The notes: a model not told the origin generated them from the sequence alone. Shown: positions 41,473 through 50,186, counted from the first letter of the stretch. The stretch: DNA of 64,000 nucleotides from Gammaproteobacteria bacterium (GCA_965243105.1 CBDEUC010000003.1:2088370-2152369); one strand, 5' to 3'. A program made the numbers and translations.

Positions 41473-42603
41473 ATGGCAAAAAAAGACTACTACGAGGTCC
41501 TTGGTGTTTCAAAGAACGCCACTGACGATGAATTGAAAAAGGCTTATCGTCGCCTTGCGATGAAGTATCACCCTGATCGCAACCCCGATGACAAGAGCGC
41601 CGAAGAGAAGTTTAAAGAAGCCAAGGAGGCGCACGACATACTGTCCGATTCGCAGAAACGAGCCGCCTACGACCAGTTTGGCCATGCAGGTGTTGATGGT
41701 GGCATGGGCGGTATGGGTGGCGGCGCCGGTGCTGCTGGTTTCGGGGACATCTTTGACAGTGTTTTTGGTGATATTTTTGGCGGAGGTGCACGCGGTGGTG
41801 AAAGAGTTTATCGCGGTGCGGACCTGCGCTATGAACTCGGACTGACGCTGGAGGAGGCGGTTGCCGGGACGACGGTTAAAATCCGCGTTCCAAAGCACGT
41901 GGAGTGTGGCACCTGCGAAGGTAGCGGCGCAAAAAAGGGAACCGAACCGGTAAATTGCACTACGTGTAACGGCATCGGACAGGTACGAATGCAGCAGGGT
42001 TTTTTCTCAGTCCAGCAAACCTGTCCACAGTGCAAGGGTACGGGAAAAATGATCAGCGATCCCTGTACAACCTGCAGGGGCCAGGGAAGAGTTCGTGATA
42101 ACAAGACCATATCTGTAAAAGTCCCACCCGGAGTAGATACTGGTGATCGCATTCGACTTTCCGGTGAAGGTGAAGCCGGGCAAAACCGCGGTCCGTCCGG
42201 CGATCTTTACGTGGATGTCTCGGTCAAGGATCATCCAATATTTGTCAGGGATGGCTCAAACCTGCACTGTGATGTGCCTGTAAGCTTTGCTACGGCGACC
42301 CTGGGCGGCGAGTTTGAAGTGCCAACCCTGGACGGCCGGGTCAAGTTGAAAATCCCGCCGGAGAGCCAGACGGGCAAACTTTTTCGGCTTCGAGGCAAGG
42401 GCGTGAAATCCGTTCGAGCATCCAGCAAGGGAGACTTGCTTTGTCGCATCGTGGTAGAGACGCCGGTCAACCTGAACAAGAAGCAAAAGGATCTGCTACG
42501 TCAATTTGAGCAGGCGATGGATGAAGATAGCAAGGAGCACCGCCCGCAGGCCAGTTCCTGGCTCGATGGAGTAAAGAATTTTTTTGACAATATGACCCAG
42601 TAA
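41473..42603 (+). CDS. dnaJ: co-chaperone DnaJ
   Basis: J-domain with HPD (YHPDRNP), a G/F region, and four CxxCxGxG zinc-finger repeats. 376 aa. Confidence 0.95.
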
Positions 42604-42677
42604 ACCAGGCCGGGCTGGAATACTGGCAAGAATCGCATTAGTCTTTGGGTCATATTCCACACGGGAAGAAAACAAAA

Positions 42678-43478
42678 ATGGTAAGAGTAGGGGTTTGTGG
42701 CGCTGCTGGCAGAATGGGAAAAACCATTATCGAAGTGTGTGACGCCAGTGACGGAGTCAAGCTGGGCGCAGCAATTGAGCACCCCGACTCGCCCGCCCTG
42801 GGCCAGGATGCCGGGCTGCTTGCCGGGACAGGTGAATGTGGTGTCAATATTGTTGCTGACATTGAAGAGGTTGCTGACGATTTTGATGTCCTGATTGACT
42901 TCACTTTTGCTGATGCAACCATTGGAAATCTTCTTAAATGCCGCGCTCTGAAAAAGCGCATGGTCATAGGTACAACCGGACTCAACCAGGAACAGCAGGA
43001 CGAGATCGCAAGCGCGGCCGAAGACTGTGCTGTGGTTTTTGCTCCGAATATGAGTATCGGTGTGAACCTGTGTTTTAAATTAATTGAACTTGCGGCACAG
43101 ATAATTGGTGAGGATACCGATATCGAGATTATCGAGGCCCACCATAATCAGAAAAAAGATGCACCTTCCGGCACCGCGGTGAAGATGGGTGAAATTGTCG
43201 CCGAAGCGCTGGGTCGCAATTTGAAAGAATGCGCGGTGTACGGCAGGGAAGGCATTGGGGATGTTCGGGACCGCAAGACCATCGGCTTTGAGACAATTCG
43301 AGCCGGCGATATCGTGGGGGATCATACCGTGATGTTTGCCTCGGCTGGAGAAAGGGTTGAGATCACTCACAAGGCATCAAGCCGAAAAACATTTGCCAGT
43401 GGCGCAGTGCGCGCAGCCAGGTGGATCGTGCAGCATGACTCCGGGTTGTTTGATATGCAGGATGTGCTGGGCCTGTGA
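42678..43478 (+). CDS. dapB: 4-hydroxy-tetrahydrodipicolinate reductase
   Basis: [18 protein letters not shown]… is a Rossmann N-terminus, and [15 protein letters not shown] is the DapB signature. The start is taken at ATG 42678 (RBS GGAAG). dnaJ-dapB linkage as in Pseudomonas. Confidence 0.9.
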
Positions 43479-43972
43479 CGACTGATGCGCCACTAAAACT
43501 TCATTCGGAAACCATTCTCCCTGGCTGGATAGATTACAACGGTCACATGAACGTGGCCTATTATGTACTGGTATTTGACCACGCCACCGACGCTTTCCTG
43601 GATTATATCGGCCTGACCGATAGCCACCGTGCACAAAACCAGTCCTCCACTTTTGCGGCAGAGCTTCACGTCAACTACATTCGCGAAGTCCGGGAAGGTG
43701 ACGAGGTCGAGGTGACGACACAACTTCTCGGGTACGACGAAAAACGTTTCCACTATTTTCACCAGATGTATCACAAGGGCGAAGGATGGCTATCAGCGAG
43801 CAACGAGGTGATGAGCCTGCACATGGATATGTCCGTGCGCAGGGTAGCGCCGATGCCCGGGGACATCCTGGAGAAGCTGGCAGATATTGCGAATGCCCAT
43901 GATAAATTACCCATACCGGAAAACGTCGGAAGGAAAATGGCAATAAAGTCCCGGCCCAATCAGCAAGGCTAA
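43475..43972 (+). CDS. hotdog-fold acyl-CoA thioesterase (4HBT/YbgC-like)
   Basis: 165-aa protein …[24 protein letters not shown]…, a 4HBT-family pattern. It overlaps the dapB stop by 4 nt. Confidence 0.7.
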
Positions 43973-44018
43973 TTCTCATCACGCACCCGGGCTTATCTCT
44001 TCGCATGGCTGAAAAACT

Positions 44019-44576
44019 ATGGAACAGGTACAAGAGCTGAGTTCGTCGGAGTCCCTTCAACATGTCCTTGCCAGGTGCCATTCGCAACTGGACGAATTAT
44101 TCCTGCAACACCAGGAATCCCTGCTGCAGGGAAAACTCGAGGAAGCCCTGTTTTTGCTTGAAATATACTGGTCCTGTCATTCTCTTCATTCCGAGTTTGA
44201 AGATGAGGAAATATTTCCCGTTTATCGGGAATTACCCCGCCCGGGTCGCTGGGATGCAACTTTATATGATAAGGAACATCAAAAAATTAACGATCTTTAC
44301 GAGACACTGCGAAGCTCAATTACTACACTGTTAGATAGGGCCTTGAAAGGCTCTGAATTGAGACGCGGTATCATCCAGTTGATGGACAGGGAAAAGAGTT
44401 TTAAAGGCCTTTGTGAACATCACCAGGAAAGAGAGGAGCAGTCACTGCTTGTGGAGCTCGATACCCAGGCTGACAGTGACTGGAAGATGAATACGATAGG
44501 AAAATTTTCAGATCTGTGGGAAGCGCATTTTGCAGAAAGTGTCCGTTTGATTAATCGTGGAGCAGGTGGTGAATAA
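44019..44576 (+). CDS. hypothetical protein, hemerythrin-like (HHE cation-binding motif pattern)
   Basis: 185-aa protein with spaced H…HxxE and H…HxxxE pairs: H21/H31/E33, H54/H57/E61, and a C-terminal HHQEREE. It is the first gene of a five-gene coupled operon. Confidence 0.4.
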   Translation: MEQVQELSSSESLQHVLARCHSQLDELFLQHQESLLQGKLEEALFLLEIYWSCHSLHSEFEDEEIFPVYRELPRPGRWDATLYDKEHQKINDLYETLRSSITTLLDRALKGSELRRGIIQLMDREKSFKGLCEHHQEREEQSLLVELDTQADSDWKMNTIGKFSDLWEAHFAESVRLINRGAGGE

Positions 44577-45343
44577 TGCTTTATAAAGTAGAAGCGAAAC
44601 TCTCGTTGAGTAGTTACAAATATGCTTTGAAACTGTTCGGACTAATTTCCATTCTCCTGTTTTCCAATGCACAGGCCATGGAAAAAGACTGGAGTGAGGA
44701 CGCCTGTTCCCTTGATTCATCCGAACAGTTCAATCACCAGGATTTTGTTCCGGATTCCTGGTTTGCCTCCTCGGCTGCCAGCGAGGCGGAACTGCAATCC
44801 GAAGTGAGTAGCATTGAGTCCGAGGACGGGGTTTACAGCCCTCGACTCGTGCCCACGCTAATCAGCATGGGTGCCCTGGCCCAGGAGAACAGTAATCACA
44901 CCCAGGCTGCGCAAAACTATGAGCGAGCACTATATATCGTACGTGCCAATGATGGCCTTTACAGCACGCAGCAGCTACCCATCCTGGACAGGATGATAGA
45001 GAGTAATACGGCCAGCGGAAACTGGAAAAGTGTCGCCAATTCCTACGACATGATGAACTGGCTTTACAAGCGAAATTTCAGCGAAACCGATCCGCGTCAG
45101 CTGAAAAGTCTCAAGCGCATCAGGCGCTGGTACATGGAAGCTTACAACAAGGATATTGATCGTACACTGGAAGTGCTGTTTCGAAGTGCAGAGGAAACCT
45201 ACGACAGGGGTATTAAGATCATGTGGGAGTGTACCAATGGTGATTCTGCAAAGTCTCTTTGCCTGTGGCATAAGTCGTGCTGCGCAAGCGGAGATGATGG
45301 CCAGGATGTTTGCCCGCTGGATGTGAAGCTAGAGCGCAGGTAA
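44576..45343 (+). CDS. hypothetical secreted protein, Cys-rich C-terminus
   Basis: 255-aa protein with an N-terminal hydrophobic signal-like segment (…LFGLISILLFSNAQA) and a C-terminal CTNGDSAKSLCLWHKSCCASGDDGQDVCP. It overlaps the upstream stop by 1 nt. Confidence 0.45.
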   Translation: MLYKVEAKLSLSSYKYALKLFGLISILLFSNAQAMEKDWSEDACSLDSSEQFNHQDFVPDSWFASSAASEAELQSEVSSIESEDGVYSPRLVPTLISMGALAQENSNHTQAAQNYERALYIVRANDGLYSTQQLPILDRMIESNTASGNWKSVANSYDMMNWLYKRNFSETDPRQLKSLKRIRRWYMEAYNKDIDRTLEVLFRSAEETYDRGIKIMWECTNGDSAKSLCLWHKSCCASGDDGQDVCPLDVKLERR

Positions 45344-45370
45344 TGAGTAGCAATATTTAATACCGAAGCA

Positions 45371-45946
45371 ATGACGATAAAAGCAAAACTTGTCGTAGTG
45401 ATTTTTCTTGGCTTGTACTTGTCTTCTACTCACGCCGAAGAGGAATCTTTTGTGGATGCCCAGTGGAAGGTTTACCAGGCAACCATGCACTACGCCTCTG
45501 AATTTTCCTTTTACAACTGCGAGGCCATGGAAAGCAAGTTGAGAAAGCTACTGGTCCTGCTTGGGGCGCGCTACGACGTGAGGGTTGAGACAGAGTGTTT
45601 GAATAACATGGTTCGAGGAAGAGTCTCACCCCTGGGGCAGCGATTCCATTTTGTCAGACTGGCCTTTGCATTACCTGTTCCTGCAGACAAGGAAGACCTG
45701 TCACGGGAAGTGTTTCCAGCACGTTGGCAAGACGCTCGAATCAGTGGAACCCAGGCCAGGTATCTGAATGGTGGAGACTGTGAATTGGTCAGGACGTTTA
45801 TTGATCAAATATTGCCTTTTCTTAAGGTGCGAAACAAGAGTGGTGCCATGGAATGTTTTGCCGTGCAACGCACCGCATCAAGGCTCAGGTCGCGAATGCA
45901 TGCACTGATACCGCTTAATGAAGAAGATCGACAGGTAATAAAGTGA
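45371..45946 (+). CDS. hypothetical secreted protein, paralog A of a tandem pair with four conserved Cys
   Basis: 191-aa protein with signal peptide MTIKAKLVVVIFLGLYLSSTHA. It shares AQWKVYQ, LRKLLVLLGARYDVRVE, FALPVP, EVFPARWQDARISG and GGDCELV blocks with the next gene. Confidence 0.5.
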   Translation: MTIKAKLVVVIFLGLYLSSTHAEEESFVDAQWKVYQATMHYASEFSFYNCEAMESKLRKLLVLLGARYDVRVETECLNNMVRGRVSPLGQRFHFVRLAFALPVPADKEDLSREVFPARWQDARISGTQARYLNGGDCELVRTFIDQILPFLKVRNKSGAMECFAVQRTASRLRSRMHALIPLNEEDRQVIK

Positions 45947-46563
45947 TGGCAAATATCCAACGTGGTGTTCCATCGTCTGTAACATGGAGGATAATGATCT
46001 TATCGCTGGTCATCAGCGCAATGCCGGGGCCAGGTTCCGTGCTGGCTGAAGCAGCACCGGTAGAAGCACAGTGGGAAGTTTACCAGGTGAGATTTCGCTA
46101 TACCGGCATGTCTTCTCATTATACTTGCCAGGGTATGGAGAATACCCTGAAAAGATTGCTGAGGTTGATTGGCGCCAGGGATGACATGCGGGTCGAGGCC
46201 AGGTGCTCTTCTTTCAGTCGCATAGAGCGTTTCCAGCGTGTAAACATGGCATTCGCCCTGCCGGTACCCCGGGATACAACGGATATTTCTGATGAAGTAT
46301 TTCCTGCTGAGTGGCAGGAGGTGAGAGTGTCCGGGGTTTCCAGTCGTTACCTTGACGATGGCGATTGTGAGTTACTTGAGGAATTCGAAAGACAGGTAAT
46401 GCCAAAACTCAATATAGAAAATACAGGTAGAAAAATACGCTGTGTGCCCTTTAAGCGAGAATTTAATCGTGTCAATTTACGCGTAAAGGCACTTATAGCC
46501 CAGGAACAACCTGAGCTGGAAGAAAGACCCCCACTGGATATAACAGAAGACGATAAAGAATAA
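45943..46563 (+). CDS. hypothetical secreted protein, paralog B of the tandem pair
   Basis: 206-aa protein with a signal peptide. It overlaps the paralog A stop by 4 nt. It shares the blocks AQWEVYQ, LKRLLRLIGARDDMRVE, FALPVP, EVFPAEWQEVRVSG and DGDCELL. Confidence 0.5.
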   Translation: MMANIQRGVPSSVTWRIMILSLVISAMPGPGSVLAEAAPVEAQWEVYQVRFRYTGMSSHYTCQGMENTLKRLLRLIGARDDMRVEARCSSFSRIERFQRVNMAFALPVPRDTTDISDEVFPAEWQEVRVSGVSSRYLDDGDCELLEEFERQVMPKLNIENTGRKIRCVPFKREFNRVNLRVKALIAQEQPELEERPPLDITEDDKE

Positions 46564-47286
46564 ATGAAAACAGCAATTATCGCCGGCGTTGGACCGGTGG
46601 AGGGGCTGGGTGCGCAGCTTTGCCTGCGTTTTGCCAAGCAAGGTTTACATGTGGCGGTTGCCGGTAGAACCAGTGAAAAACTGGACCTTGTTGTCAGTGA
46701 GATTGAAAAGGCGGGTGGCCAGGCTACTGCGGCTATCTGCGACACTAGACATGAAAGCGATGTCACGCGCCTGTTCGAAGAGACAGCCAGGCTCGGGGAT
46801 ATATCACTGGCCGTATTCAACGTGGGAAATAATTATCCCGGTACCATCGTTGATATGGAGTCCGACTACTTTGAAAACGCCTGGCGCACGGTTTGCCTCG
46901 GTGGTTTTTATTTTGGTCGCGAGGCGGCAAAGCGCATGCTGGATCAAGGACAGGGTACGATCCTTTTTACGGGTGCCAGTGCCTCCCTTCGCGGCAAGGC
47001 CAATTTTGGTGCATTCAATTCCTCCAAGGCAGCACTGAGAACTTTTGCCCAGGCACTTGCTAAGGAGGTTGGGCCCGGTGGTGTACACGTGGGACATGTC
47101 GTCGTTGATGGCCCCATCAACGGGGACAAAATCAAGACCCGTTTTCCTGACTGGGCTGAAAGGGTGGGTGAGCAGGGAATGATCAGTATCGAAGGGATAG
47201 TGGATGCCTACGACTACCTCTATCAGCAGGATAAAACTGCCTGGAGTTTTGAACTGGATTTACGCACTGCCGTTGAAAATTGGTAA
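46564..47286 (+). CDS. short-chain dehydrogenase/reductase (SDR) family oxidoreductase
   Basis: N-terminal cofactor-binding glycine motif with GxGxxG spacing (AGVGPVEGLG, a non-canonical variant of the SDR TGxxxGxG) and a catalytic S…Y…K arrangement (SSKAALRTFAQALAKE). Its start is immediately adjacent to the upstream stop. Confidence 0.75.
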   Translation: MKTAIIAGVGPVEGLGAQLCLRFAKQGLHVAVAGRTSEKLDLVVSEIEKAGGQATAAICDTRHESDVTRLFEETARLGDISLAVFNVGNNYPGTIVDMESDYFENAWRTVCLGGFYFGREAAKRMLDQGQGTILFTGASASLRGKANFGAFNSSKAALRTFAQALAKEVGPGGVHVGHVVVDGPINGDKIKTRFPDWAERVGEQGMISIEGIVDAYDYLYQQDKTAWSFELDLRTAVENW

Positions 47287-47306
47287 GTGGATACTGACTG
47301 CTCATT

Positions 47307-47879
47307 TCAGGGAAATAAAAACTCTACGATACCAGGGATCCATTTTTCAAAACCCTGGAAAGAATGGTCACCCCCTTTTTCCACCAGTTGCCTGCAAGCT
47401 GCATATTTTTCAGTAGCCAGCCGGTAGTCCAGGGTTTCATCGCCGGTCTGAACCATCAGCCAGTAGTTTTCTGTTAGGCTGATTTCTGCAACTTCATGCT
47501 CAAGTAAATCGTGGACATGATGCTCGCGAAGCACGTAGCTCTCATTGGTATGATAGTTATGTAATTCTACGTCGACATAGTCGGGCTTCAATATGGAAGG
47601 CCTGACCGCGGGGTTGATAAGCACAGCGCGTAAATTGTAGGTTTCCACGAGCCAGGTTGCCCAGTAGCCGCCGAGGGAACTGCCAACCAGCCCGATGTTG
47701 CCAGGTAACAGGTTTTCTACGATGCCCTGCAGCGTGTCCCGGGTATCGGCAGCGTAGGGCGTCAACGCCGGGCAATGATACTGAATGTCGGAGCGATTAT
47801 TCCTGAGCCACTCCTTTACCAGTACAGCTTTATGGGACCTCGGAGAGCTGAGGAATCCATGAATATATAGCAGGTGCAT
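47307..47879 (-). CDS. esterase YqiA family (UPF0227)
   Basis: MHLLYIHGFLSSPRSHKA…LVGSSLGGYWATWL is the YqiA pattern. 190 aa. Confidence 0.7.
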   Translation of the reverse strand: MHLLYIHGFLSSPRSHKAVLVKEWLRNNRSDIQYHCPALTPYAADTRDTLQGIVENLLPGNIGLVGSSLGGYWATWLVETYNLRAVLINPAVRPSILKPDYVDVELHNYHTNESYVLREHHVHDLLEHEVAEISLTENYWLMVQTGDETLDYRLATEKYAACRQLVEKGGDHSFQGFEKWIPGIVEFLFP

Positions 47880-47886
47880 TGCACGC

Positions 47887-48534
47887 TTACTTTCCTGCCT
47901 GGAATTCGGTCAGTGCGGCCTGCCAGTCGGCATCAACAGTTTTACAGTGCTCGCGTGCTGAAATAAGCTCGCGTGATTCAGCAAGGCCCTTCACATCAGC
48001 GATGATATCCCAGTCGTAAAATGCCTGCGCGACGTTAGCGGGATAAATAAATGACTGGTAAACAAGAATGTCGGCAAAGGTGAATTCTGAACCCGTGATA
48101 AAGGGATCAAAGTTGGCCAGCTGGTTCAGGGCACGGATTCCTTTTTCCATGATTGGTTTCACTTCCGCAACTGCCGTTTCGTTAATCGCATCGCCAAAGA
48201 ACAGGTGGCTGTAGTGACGACGCGCGCTTAATTCAATATACAATTCGCATACATGCATGATCTCCCTGGCCTTCGCCCGTGCAAGGGGATCTGCGGGAAG
48301 TAAAGGTTGGGCTGGAAACGCATCTTCAAGATAATCCAGGATCACCACGGTTTCGCAAAGGAAAGTGCCATCCACTTCGATGCTGGGTACTTTTCCCATC
48401 GGGCTTTTTGCCAGGTATCCCGGGTCCTGGCTGGGCATGGTGTGTACTTCTTCGAATTCAATACCCTTTTCCAGCATTGCCCACCTGAGCATGTTGTAGT
48501 AATTGCTAACCCTGAACCCATAAAGCTTGATCAT
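47887..48534 (-). CDS. glutathione S-transferase family protein
   Basis: 215-aa protein with an N-terminal thioredoxin-like GST domain (MIKLYGFRVSNYYNMLRWAMLEKGIEFEEV…SPMGKVP) and a C-terminal helical domain. Confidence 0.8.
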   Translation of the reverse strand: MIKLYGFRVSNYYNMLRWAMLEKGIEFEEVHTMPSQDPGYLAKSPMGKVPSIEVDGTFLCETVVILDYLEDAFPAQPLLPADPLARAKAREIMHVCELYIELSARRHYSHLFFGDAINETAVAEVKPIMEKGIRALNQLANFDPFITGSEFTFADILVYQSFIYPANVAQAFYDWDIIADVKGLAESRELISAREHCKTVDADWQAALTEFQAGK

Positions 48535-48650: not shown

Positions 48651-50186
48651 TTATTCCCTGGTATGTTCCAGCCGGTAGAATATACCTACAGCAAAATCAT
48701 TTTTACCGTGGGCCAAGGTCGAAGATTGAAAAATTTCTTCAAAGGACAAAGCTGAATTTTTCATCTGCTTCGGGGAAATATAAAATTTAGCGGATGGAAT
48801 TGAATAATAATACTTGCATCTAATACTTCCACTATCAAGTAACTGATCCTGTCCCCAGTCTGGTAGAAAAGACGGTAACAGCGCATTTGCAGCCACGATT
48901 GAGGCAAAATTACTATAGACACAAGACCCTGGTTCGACGGTATCCTTGATGGTGGAAATATCAAGCATTACCTGTTTTATCACGGAGACCCTTGATATTG
49001 CATCATCTTCGTTCGGAATCCTTGTCCATTCCCGCGTTCGTGAAAGTTCCATGCTTTCAATTCGGGGGGCATTTAGCAATCTCCCAACAGTCCGGCCGAT
49101 GCCATTTTCAAAATTAGTTGCAAGGAAAAAAAGTGTTATTGTGAACAATACCGGGTAACGATACCTGTCAATCTTGAGAACTTGAATAGCGGAAAACATT
49201 GCCACCAATAATGCCGGTAGCAATGCCCAGAGAAGCCTTGGATATTGCCCCGGAAAAGGCCAGGCGGCTATCAGGACGAGGGAAAAAATTGCATACCAGG
49301 CATCCACACGGTTCTTTAACAGTCGTAGATACAGGCCCGGTATTACCAGAATACCAGCTACCAGGCTTGTCGGTATGTTGTCCCACAACCCGATCCATCC
49401 ATTAATAAGCGAGCCGGCTTGTGAAAAAATATAGCTAACTCCGGACGCTTCTATTTCCTGCATGAAAATGGAAATGTAGCCAGGACTTGAGGGGAGACCA
49501 AGGCTGAGATAAAACATCAGCAGCAGACCAGTAACCAGGCCTGGCAGGTAATAAAGGAAGTTATGGAAATTGCGGCCCGCAGCCAGGGCGCAGGGGATAG
49601 CAAGGGCGAGCATCCAGCCTGTACTTCGCGTAGCTATACATAAACCTGTCAAGGCGCCGATTAGCATCCATTTATATGAACTTGTGCTGTCACAACGACA
49701 CAGAAGCAGGACCAGCGTTGTCAGCAACAAAAACAGGTATTCAGAAAGAAGGTAGGCAAGCTGGTCAAGGGCTACAGGTAGAAATATCAGCAGCGACGAA
49801 GCGAGGAACGCTGCGAAAACAGGGACTTTTTCACGAATCAGCCAGGCCATGGAAAGGCTTGCTGCCATTCCGAGAAACACCGCGTTTAGCATCGCGGCCG
49901 AATCCGCATTTACCAGTACATCGCCTGCAAACGAGAGTATGAACGGATATAGAGGAGGATATTGTCTCGACTGCAGCATCAACTGGAGAAAGTCATCCTG
50001 CTCGCCCCGGTTTGAGTACCATTCAGCCATTAGCGCATACCAGGCATCATCCCAGTAGAGACCCAGTGGAGGAGAAGGCAGCATTAGCCATGCACACAGC
50101 AAAGAGAAAGCGGTAAAGGCGACGATCACAACGACAACAGTCCGGCCCGCGGCCGGTTTTGAACCCTGCCTGTATGCTAGTTCCAT
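48651..50186 (-). CDS. polytopic integral membrane protein, possible GT-C-fold glycosyltransferase (ArnT/PMT-like)
   Basis: 511-aa protein with at least 10 predicted TM helices and a C-terminal soluble domain. There is an N-terminal DD/W-rich loop (YWDDAWYALMAEWY). Assignment is from architecture only. Confidence 0.45.
   Translation of the reverse strand: MELAYRQGSKPAAGRTVVVVIVAFTAFSLLCAWLMLPSPPLGLYWDDAWYALMAEWYSNRGEQDDFLQLMLQSRQYPPLYPFILSFAGDVLVNADSAAMLNAVFLGMAASLSMAWLIREKVPVFAAFLASSLLIFLPVALDQLAYLLSEYLFLLLTTLVLLLCRCDSTSSYKWMLIGALTGLCIATRSTGWMLALAIPCALAAGRNFHNFLYYLPGLVTGLLLMFYLSLGLPSSPGYISIFMQEIEASGVSYIFSQAGSLINGWIGLWDNIPTSLVAGILVIPGLYLRLLKNRVDAWYAIFSLVLIAAWPFPGQYPRLLWALLPALLVAMFSAIQVLKIDRYRYPVLFTITLFFLATNFENGIGRTVGRLLNAPRIESMELSRTREWTRIPNEDDAISRVSVIKQVMLDISTIKDTVEPGSCVYSNFASIVAANALLPSFLPDWGQDQLLDSGSIRCKYYYSIPSAKFYISPKQMKNSALSFEEIFQSSTLAHGKNDFAVGIFYRLEHTRE

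Follow-up and report, generated by a model that had tools for sequence, protein, structure and literature searches.

The five-gene operon

We analysed a 64,000-nt stretch of DNA from a gammaproteobacterium (GCA_965243105.1, CBDEUC010000003.1:2088370-2152369), referred to below as the window, in which five consecutive genes, designated g1 to g5, occupy positions 44019 to 47286 of the plus strand. An earlier description made from the DNA alone (the sequence-only reading) had placed five open reading frames (ORFs) there, and all five are present. They are listed below, where TPR denotes tetratricopeptide repeat and SDR denotes short-chain dehydrogenase/reductase.

44019-44576, plus strand: g1, 185 aa, cytoplasmic hemerythrin-like (HHE) protein, presumably an accessory
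44576-45343, plus strand: g2, 255 aa, probably secreted protein of predicted TPR fold with a Cys-rich C-terminal tail
45371-45946, plus strand: g3, 191 aa, probably secreted four-Cys protein, paralog type 1
45946-46563, plus strand: g4, 205 aa when counted from the ATG at 45946 (206 aa from the GTG at 45943), probably secreted four-Cys protein, paralog type 2
46564-47286, plus strand: g5, 240 aa, atypical classical-type SDR, 3H7A-like, with Phe151 in the place of the catalytic Tyr

We are highly confident that this region is one real, co-transcribed and conserved operon. The 1-nt overlap of g1 and g2 at 44576 was read directly from the DNA as TAATG, in which the stop codon of g1 occupies 44574-44576 and the ATG of g2 occupies 44576-44578; the recorded g2 protein starts at this ATG, which shares a base with the g1 stop. 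An alternative in-frame TTG of g2 lies 30 nt inside the gene, at 44606; from there, the signal peptide would have a short n-region of more typical form (MSSYKYALK...). The spacing between g2 and g3 is 27 nt. At the g3/g4 junction, which reads ...AAGTGATGG, the TGA of g3 occupies 45944-45946. A 4-nt overlap had been proposed here and the GTG at 45943 on which it depends does exist, but the in-frame ATG at 45946, giving an overlap of 1 nt, is the likelier start, because the 205-aa ATG form of g4 is on record in the public protein collection and the 206-aa GTG form is absent there. Finally, the TAA of g4 (46561-46563) is followed directly by the ATG of g5 at 46564, so that the gap is 0 nt, as had been reported.

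Since each of the five genes has homologues and dN/dS is low where it was obtained, g1 to g5 are real genes and not chance ORFs. The dN/dS values against the related locus L003 (79-95% identical; related loci are designated by L numbers) were 0.26 for g1, 0.10 for g2 and 0.18 for g4, with 0.02 for dnaJ; the genes are under purifying selection. A promoter and terminator scan of positions 42400-48000 gave counts not clearly above the shuffled expectation and no convincing site bracketing the operon. No PADLOC anti-phage defence model matched g1 to g5 or a protein with two transmembrane segments (the 2-TM protein) that is encoded beside the cluster in relatives.

The view that most of the products belong to no assignable family was borne out, as g1 to g4 all fall below the threshold of every Pfam and NCBIfam family. 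Three of the products are likely to be secreted: judged by an N-terminal hydrophobic segment typical of signal peptides, rather than by a dedicated signal-peptide predictor, such a segment is found in 57 of 62 four-Cys family members, 17 of 19 g2 family members and 1 of 26 g1 family members. The g1 protein itself has no N-terminal hydrophobic segment or signal peptide, in agreement with the cytoplasmic location ascribed to it.

Families of the encoded proteins

The proteins g3 and g4 are mutual paralogs, as the sequence-only reading had held, with 41% identity (E = 3e-47), and the conserved Cys ascribed to the pair extend to the whole family: W32, C50, G65, C76, C137 and C162 are invariant in 62 diverse members. 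Acidic residues flank the invariant Cys in the motifs YSC[DE]G[LM]E and GDCELVE. While a word-indexed search gave 3 relatives, an exhaustive profile search gave at least 810 representative clusters (defined at 50% identity) at E <= 1e-3 and 393 at E <= 1e-10. Those relatives that have been named all carry the label 'hypothetical protein'. Pfam scans gave no match for the 62 diverse members, nor for ten unusually long members, whose extensions look like low-complexity linkers, and tblastn of g4 against 72,556 plasmids gave no match. Homology to lipocalins, to periplasmic binding proteins or to any solved fold, which could have refuted the sequence-only reading, was not found for g3 and g4. The AlphaFold2 model of g3 is confident (pLDDT 86, pTM 0.80); its novelty was measured against solved structures, and since such a confident model has no solved neighbour, the four-Cys protein is a good target for experimental structure determination.

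The two halves of the four-Cys protein are homologous (hhalign probability 94%, E = 1e-7); therefore, the protein arose by tandem duplication of a module of about 80 aa. In the model, one Cys of each module stands where a helix begins and the second just past the following strand. These positions lie on the same side of the beta-alpha-beta unit and thus fit one disulfide per module, by which each module is probably stapled according to the model. A rough neighbour-joining tree groups g4 with the second copies of the relatives that have two, and this suggests an old duplication followed by differential loss. Two copies are present in the window, L003, L004, L006, L013 and L022, and one in L002, L015, L016, L017, L018 and L020. 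The g3 orthologue of L003 (5100-5585) matches residues 71-191 only, its ORF being shortened at the 5' end, either by a frameshift or by an assembly error. Distant members of the family occur as solitary genes at the following positions:

L005, 5646-6281: solitary four-Cys gene
L010, 6001-6648: solitary four-Cys gene
L012, 6001-7149: solitary four-Cys gene
L023, 7001-7588: solitary four-Cys gene

Solitary four-Cys genes lie between folA or kynurenine-pathway genes and the envelope-biogenesis block apaH-apaG-rsmA-pdxA-surA-lptD.

The predicted structure of g2 is a TPR fold, that is, a superhelix of helix-turn-helix repeats, and the closest solved structures are the TPR domains of kinesin light chain, at 12-17% identity. 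The Pfam models TPR-S, SHNi-TPR, TPR_12 and TPR_1 matched g2 with E = 0.006-0.03, all below their cut-offs, and a profile search of the PDB gave nothing significant. Six Cys are conserved in the g2 family, one of them N-terminal and the others in the tail C-x9-C[FL]WH[KR]xCC-x9-CP, for which the confidence of the model is low. The usual partners of TPR domains are proteins or peptides and not small molecules, and NlpI, BamD and CcmI/NrfG are examples of periplasmic TPR proteins in bacteria.

The hemerythrin-like character claimed for g1 found support at the superfamily level from sequence comparison. The g1 protein itself scored 18 bits against Pfam Hemerythrin (E = 0.004; cut-off 25.3 bits), and 16 of 26 family members matched PF01814 at E <= 0.01 (best E = 5e-6). 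Invariant in all 26 are H21, H57, E61, H87, H134, H135 and E139, forming the pattern H...HxxxE...H...HHxxxE, together with a family-specific motif, KSFKGLCEHHQEREE. On these residues, g1 is a putative metal-binding protein of the di-iron type. A profile search of the PDB gave no significant match. We also considered the family of the ribosome-binding persister protein PA2171 (NF053874), and rejected it because g1 scored 15.8 bits against a cut-off of 190 bits (E = 0.009); PA2171 of P. aeruginosa is a hemerythrin-like protein (PMC13041383). For named relatives of the cluster proteins, the annotations go no further than 'hypothetical protein', 'hemerythrin-like domain-containing protein' and 'TPR repeat protein'. 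Directly 5' of distant g1-type genes, a protein of 289-291 aa is encoded (L007 5651-6526; L008 7115-7984), 74% identical between the two loci and with only a faint Glyoxalase/VOC match. It is not related to g2, as had been considered for the 289-aa form, and looks like a second, different partnership of the g1 family.

The conserved residues of these three families also bear on another explanation, in which the cysteines of the four-Cys proteins and the CxxH/CC tail of g2 would be ligands for iron or copper in the periplasm instead of forming disulfides, and g1 would sense or buffer cytoplasmic iron. The acidic residues beside the invariant Cys, the C[FL]WH[KR]xCC motif of g2 and the HHE cation-binding pattern of g1 would all suit such a role, as would the ccm cytochrome c maturation genes found directly downstream of the cluster in one relative. 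However, that adjacency is limited to a single lineage, the cluster encodes no metal transporter, metal-responsive regulator or known metallochaperone motif (there is no CxxC), and the position of the Cys, where a helix begins and where a strand ends, fits structural disulfides. We consider metal handling very unlikely.

The g5 protein is a clear member of its superfamily, with 102 bits against Pfam adh_short (PF00106; cut-off 26.6, E = 3e-29) and 335 matching solved SDR structures at E <= 1e-5. It keeps the Rossmann motifs, the Ser and Lys155, but lacks the complete catalytic Asn-Ser-Tyr-Lys tetrad (YxxxK), because F151 aligns with the canonical SDR Tyr and the Asn is replaced (V110/C111). 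Eight orthologues have F151, C111, S139/S141 and K155 without exception, and so do the relatives from Bradyrhizobium and Trichlorobacter. The SDR had been named as the only obvious catalyst of the operon, a statement that must be given up in that form: g5 is not conventional, its catalytic Tyr being Phe in all orthologues. Among solved structures, the nearest to g5 is 3h7a (E = 8.5e-46, for residues 3-235), a structural-genomics entry of an SDR from Rhodopseudomonas palustris, which has in common with g5 GAFxxxK (Phe for Tyr), TGASASLRG and the C-terminal AY..LYxQ..AW[ST]FE. We take this 3H7A-type subgroup to correspond to the CDD subgroup cd05373 'SDR_c10'. None of its members has a known substrate, and a literature search for '3H7A' found nothing. 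Judging from the genes that surround its plasmid-borne members, the subgroup is probably enzymatic with a non-canonical active site.

Relatives of g5 at 43-58% identity lie on plasmids of Bradyrhizobium and Trichlorobacter. The Bradyrhizobium SDR adjoins a glutathione S-transferase (GST)-like gene, and the Trichlorobacter plasmid SDR (L027 4980-6335) adjoins an HCCA isomerase, which is GST-kappa-like. A GST gene also stands two genes from g5 in the window, so that GST-like neighbours recur on two unrelated plasmids and here; SDR and GST could be functionally associated.

Genomic context and conservation

The genomic context was established from contig look-ups, from scans of genomes and metagenomes and by mapping every retrieved locus with tblastn. 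The results showed that g2, the four-Cys genes and the SDR gene stay together across relatives; the co-conservation test proposed with the sequence-only reading thus did not refute it. The order g2, four-Cys (one or two copies), SDR is kept in about 15 related loci, from which g1 is missing once; in g2-bearing loci with visible flanks, the full order is dnaJ-dapB-thioesterase-[CBS]-2TM-g1-g2-4Cys(x1 or x2)-SDR. The SDR gene stands directly after the last four-Cys gene in every locus that reaches that far, with gaps of 0-53 nt. Across the loci the cluster proteins are 43-64% identical, and DnaJ about 80%. We concluded that the cluster is vertically conserved in a clade of uncultured marine Gammaproteobacteria. 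The metagenome-assembled contig L003 carries the label 'Enterobacteriaceae', and L004 carries 'Planctomycetota' although its synteny is gammaproteobacterial and its DnaJ about 80% identical; both labels look unreliable.

The CBS and 2-TM genes are absent from the window and from L003. Because most relatives carry them, the five-gene operon is a larger cluster in reduced form, and the window genome has lost both genes; the five-gene unit described earlier is therefore real as an operon but does not represent the cluster of most relatives. The CBS-pair gene precedes the 2-TM gene in L004, L006, L015, L016 and L018, and the 2-TM gene was located just upstream of g1 or g2 at these positions:

L004, 7432-7977: 2-TM gene
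L002, 381-929: 2-TM gene
L006, 4245-4787: 2-TM gene
L013, 7291-7821: 2-TM gene

The 2-TM protein is about 180 aa long and very conserved (mean column identity 72%), with a periplasmic domain of about 120 aa and almost no cytoplasmic part. Its orthologues gave weak matches to the DgcN/YfiN N-terminus (2 of 6, E = 0.0017) and to CHASE8 (1 of 6, E = 0.024), and a profile search of the PDB found none that was significant.

What lies downstream of the cluster varies, being yqiA in the window, L001, L002 and L013, and ccm genes in another lineage. In L019, which belongs to a high-GC lineage, a g2-like gene also stands next to a four-Cys gene, just after tRNA-Leu and queA. This is the only independent genomic context that was found and it is limited to g2 and four-Cys; its recurrence therefore supports these two as the functional core.

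Upstream of the operon in the window, on the same strand, are dnaK, dnaJ, dapB and a 4HBT_2 thioesterase gene; downstream, on the opposite strand, are yqiA, a GST gene, the gene of a membrane protein and lhr. Those with positions of their own are listed below, together with a tmRNA gene found elsewhere in the window.

43475-43972, plus strand: 4HBT_2 hotdog thioesterase (Pfam 4HBT_2, E = 4e-35), possible upstream member
47887-48534, minus strand: GST
48651-50186, minus strand: polytopic membrane protein of 511 aa
25024-25385, minus strand: full-length tmRNA gene (Rfam RF00023, 229.7 bits)

The thioesterase gene shares 4 nt (GTGA) with the end of dapB and ends 46 nt 5' of g1. In NCBIfam its product comes closest, though below the cut-off, to the C-terminal part of carnitine 3-dehydrogenase PRK07531 (E = 1e-39). 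As it is found 5' of the cluster in every relative (L002, L003, L004, L006, L013, L015, L016 and L018), the thioesterase is a possible member of the cluster by gene order. The 511-aa membrane protein has no Pfam or NCBIfam match at E <= 1; in the syntenic locus L001 a 43% identical protein is encoded, there between GST and lhr.

The two ends of this block bring in a small-molecule pathway, which comes close to the binding or processing system first suggested. In the cytoplasm, the thioesterase, g1 and the SDR would produce or alter an acyl-CoA-derived or similar metabolite, which the secreted TPR and four-Cys proteins would bind or process in the periplasm. Such a pathway would explain why the block always has a thioesterase at its 5' end and an SDR at its 3' end, and it would fit the close SDR relatives found in acyl-CoA metabolic clusters beside GST-like proteins, the GST gene nearby in the window, and the CoA-transferase and VOC-like protein adjoining distant g1 relatives; moreover, the conserved Y216 and Y220 of g5 could stand in for the catalytic Tyr. 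On the other hand, the cluster has no gene for a transporter or exporter, the four-Cys model is unlike known ligand-binding folds, and g1 is dispensable in L013. In general, hemerythrin-like proteins are usually sensors or carriers and not oxygenases, and the typical ligands of TPR domains, as mentioned above, are not small molecules. We regard this pathway as unlikely.

Interpretation and comparison with known systems

The reading that we tentatively favour is that of an envelope module, redox-responsive and with a structural or sensing function. The constant core of the cluster consists of the secreted Cys-tailed TPR protein g2, one or two four-Cys proteins and the cytoplasmic Tyr-less SDR g5, with g1 as a frequent cytoplasmic accessory. 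The TPR protein may be a periplasmic scaffold that binds the four-Cys proteins, and in relatives the resulting complex may dock on the 2-TM protein of the inner membrane. The oxidation state of the conserved Cys would tie the module to redox conditions, and through the hemerythrin-like, CBS and SDR proteins of the cytoplasm it would be coupled to the status of O2, iron, adenylate or NAD(P)H. Such a module would not be a classical binding-protein transport system, and the periplasmic binding or processing system of the sequence-only reading remains conjecture. The parts of this reading are not equally firm. That g2 and the four-Cys proteins work together in the periplasm is reasonably probable, and the redox-sensing or structural role as stated is doubtful. 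The fullest version, an undescribed redox-responsive partner-switch or assembly system, in which a new periplasmic fold family and its dedicated TPR partner with the Cys tail are joined, in most relatives, by a 2-TM anchor resembling CHASE8, and which is coupled to hemerythrin-like, CBS and Tyr-less SDR sensors in the cytoplasm, is quite unlikely.

Several observations weigh against this reading. Nearly all cluster-bearing loci share the dnaK-dnaJ-dapB neighbourhood, and the co-conservation may therefore largely be inheritance within one clade. The g1 gene is absent from L013, a contig of 597 kb on which all the other cluster genes are kept, and g1 relatives at 42-47% identity adjoin a VOC-like protein or a CoA-transferase. 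Distant four-Cys genes (25-34% identity) stand alone in several lineages. The 58%-identical SDR on the Bradyrhizobium plasmid (L026 5183-6711) lies in a beta-oxidation-like cluster, which suggests an enzymatic and not a sensory role for this SDR subfamily. Furthermore, the 2-TM protein is without a cytoplasmic output domain and its gene is missing from the window.

Many of the same observations would follow if the cluster were a supra-operon of unrelated functions, in which an arrangement downstream of dnaK-dnaJ-dapB has simply been inherited, g2 and four-Cys are the sole functional pair, and g1 and the SDR have unrelated cytoplasmic jobs. Under this explanation it would be expected that one conserved neighbourhood is common to almost all the loci, that L013 could lose g1 without other change, that g1-like, SDR-like and four-Cys-like genes are found separately in other lineages, and that g2 with four-Cys is the sole independent recurrence. 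It accounts less well for the SDR gene, which always follows the last four-Cys gene within 0-53 nt even where identity has fallen to about 60%, and for the unbroken order of the cluster genes in general, whose proteins have diverged far more rapidly than the housekeeping genes on either side. In addition, the stop-start overlap of g1 and g2 and the abutment of g4 and g5 suggest coupled expression. We consider an assembly of unrelated functions possible but somewhat doubtful, and keep the envelope module as our tentative preference.

Conserved operons of unknown function are common in uncultured bacteria, and the g1-g5 cluster is one of many. The most valuable outcome of the present analysis is the definition of a large unmodelled secreted family built from a duplicated two-Cys module, which merits a family model (DUF entry). 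Its members are common in Gammaproteobacteria of marine and sediment origin and, in other lineages, stand beside the lptD-surA envelope-biogenesis locus; if the core pair works as proposed, the cluster would provide a first functional handle on the family. On the same condition, the 3H7A-type SDRs without the Tyr, of which a structure is solved, would be given a context.

The whole system, and the four-Cys family in particular, is undescribed, and its composition matches no described system. Known superfamilies accommodate g1 (HHE/hemerythrin), g2 (TPR) and g5 (SDR), each of which lies below or outside the curated definitions in at least one respect. The g1 protein shares the H...HxxxE...H...HxxxE ligand spacing of the hemerythrin/HHE family (PF01814), to which single-domain bacterial proteins such as PA2171 belong, but falls below the Pfam threshold and has its own KSFKGLCEHHQEREE motif, with Cys adjoining the His ligands. 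From TPR scaffold proteins g2 is set apart by its unique conserved six-Cys pattern, and no homology to a named bacterial TPR family was found. Other 3H7A-type members, unlike g5, sit in metabolic clusters and not beside secreted proteins. As to the system as a whole, weak leads point to the periplasmic partner switching of YfiBNR (TpbB) as the nearest functional analogy. The cluster differs from it in that g3 and g4 are not homologues of YfiR (DUF4154), having no Pfam match and no structural match, and in that neither a GGDEF output domain nor an OmpA-like YfiB is encoded. What the two would share, by analogy only, is a sensor domain that a membrane protein places in the periplasm, a small disulfide-containing alpha/beta protein of the periplasm and a third envelope partner.

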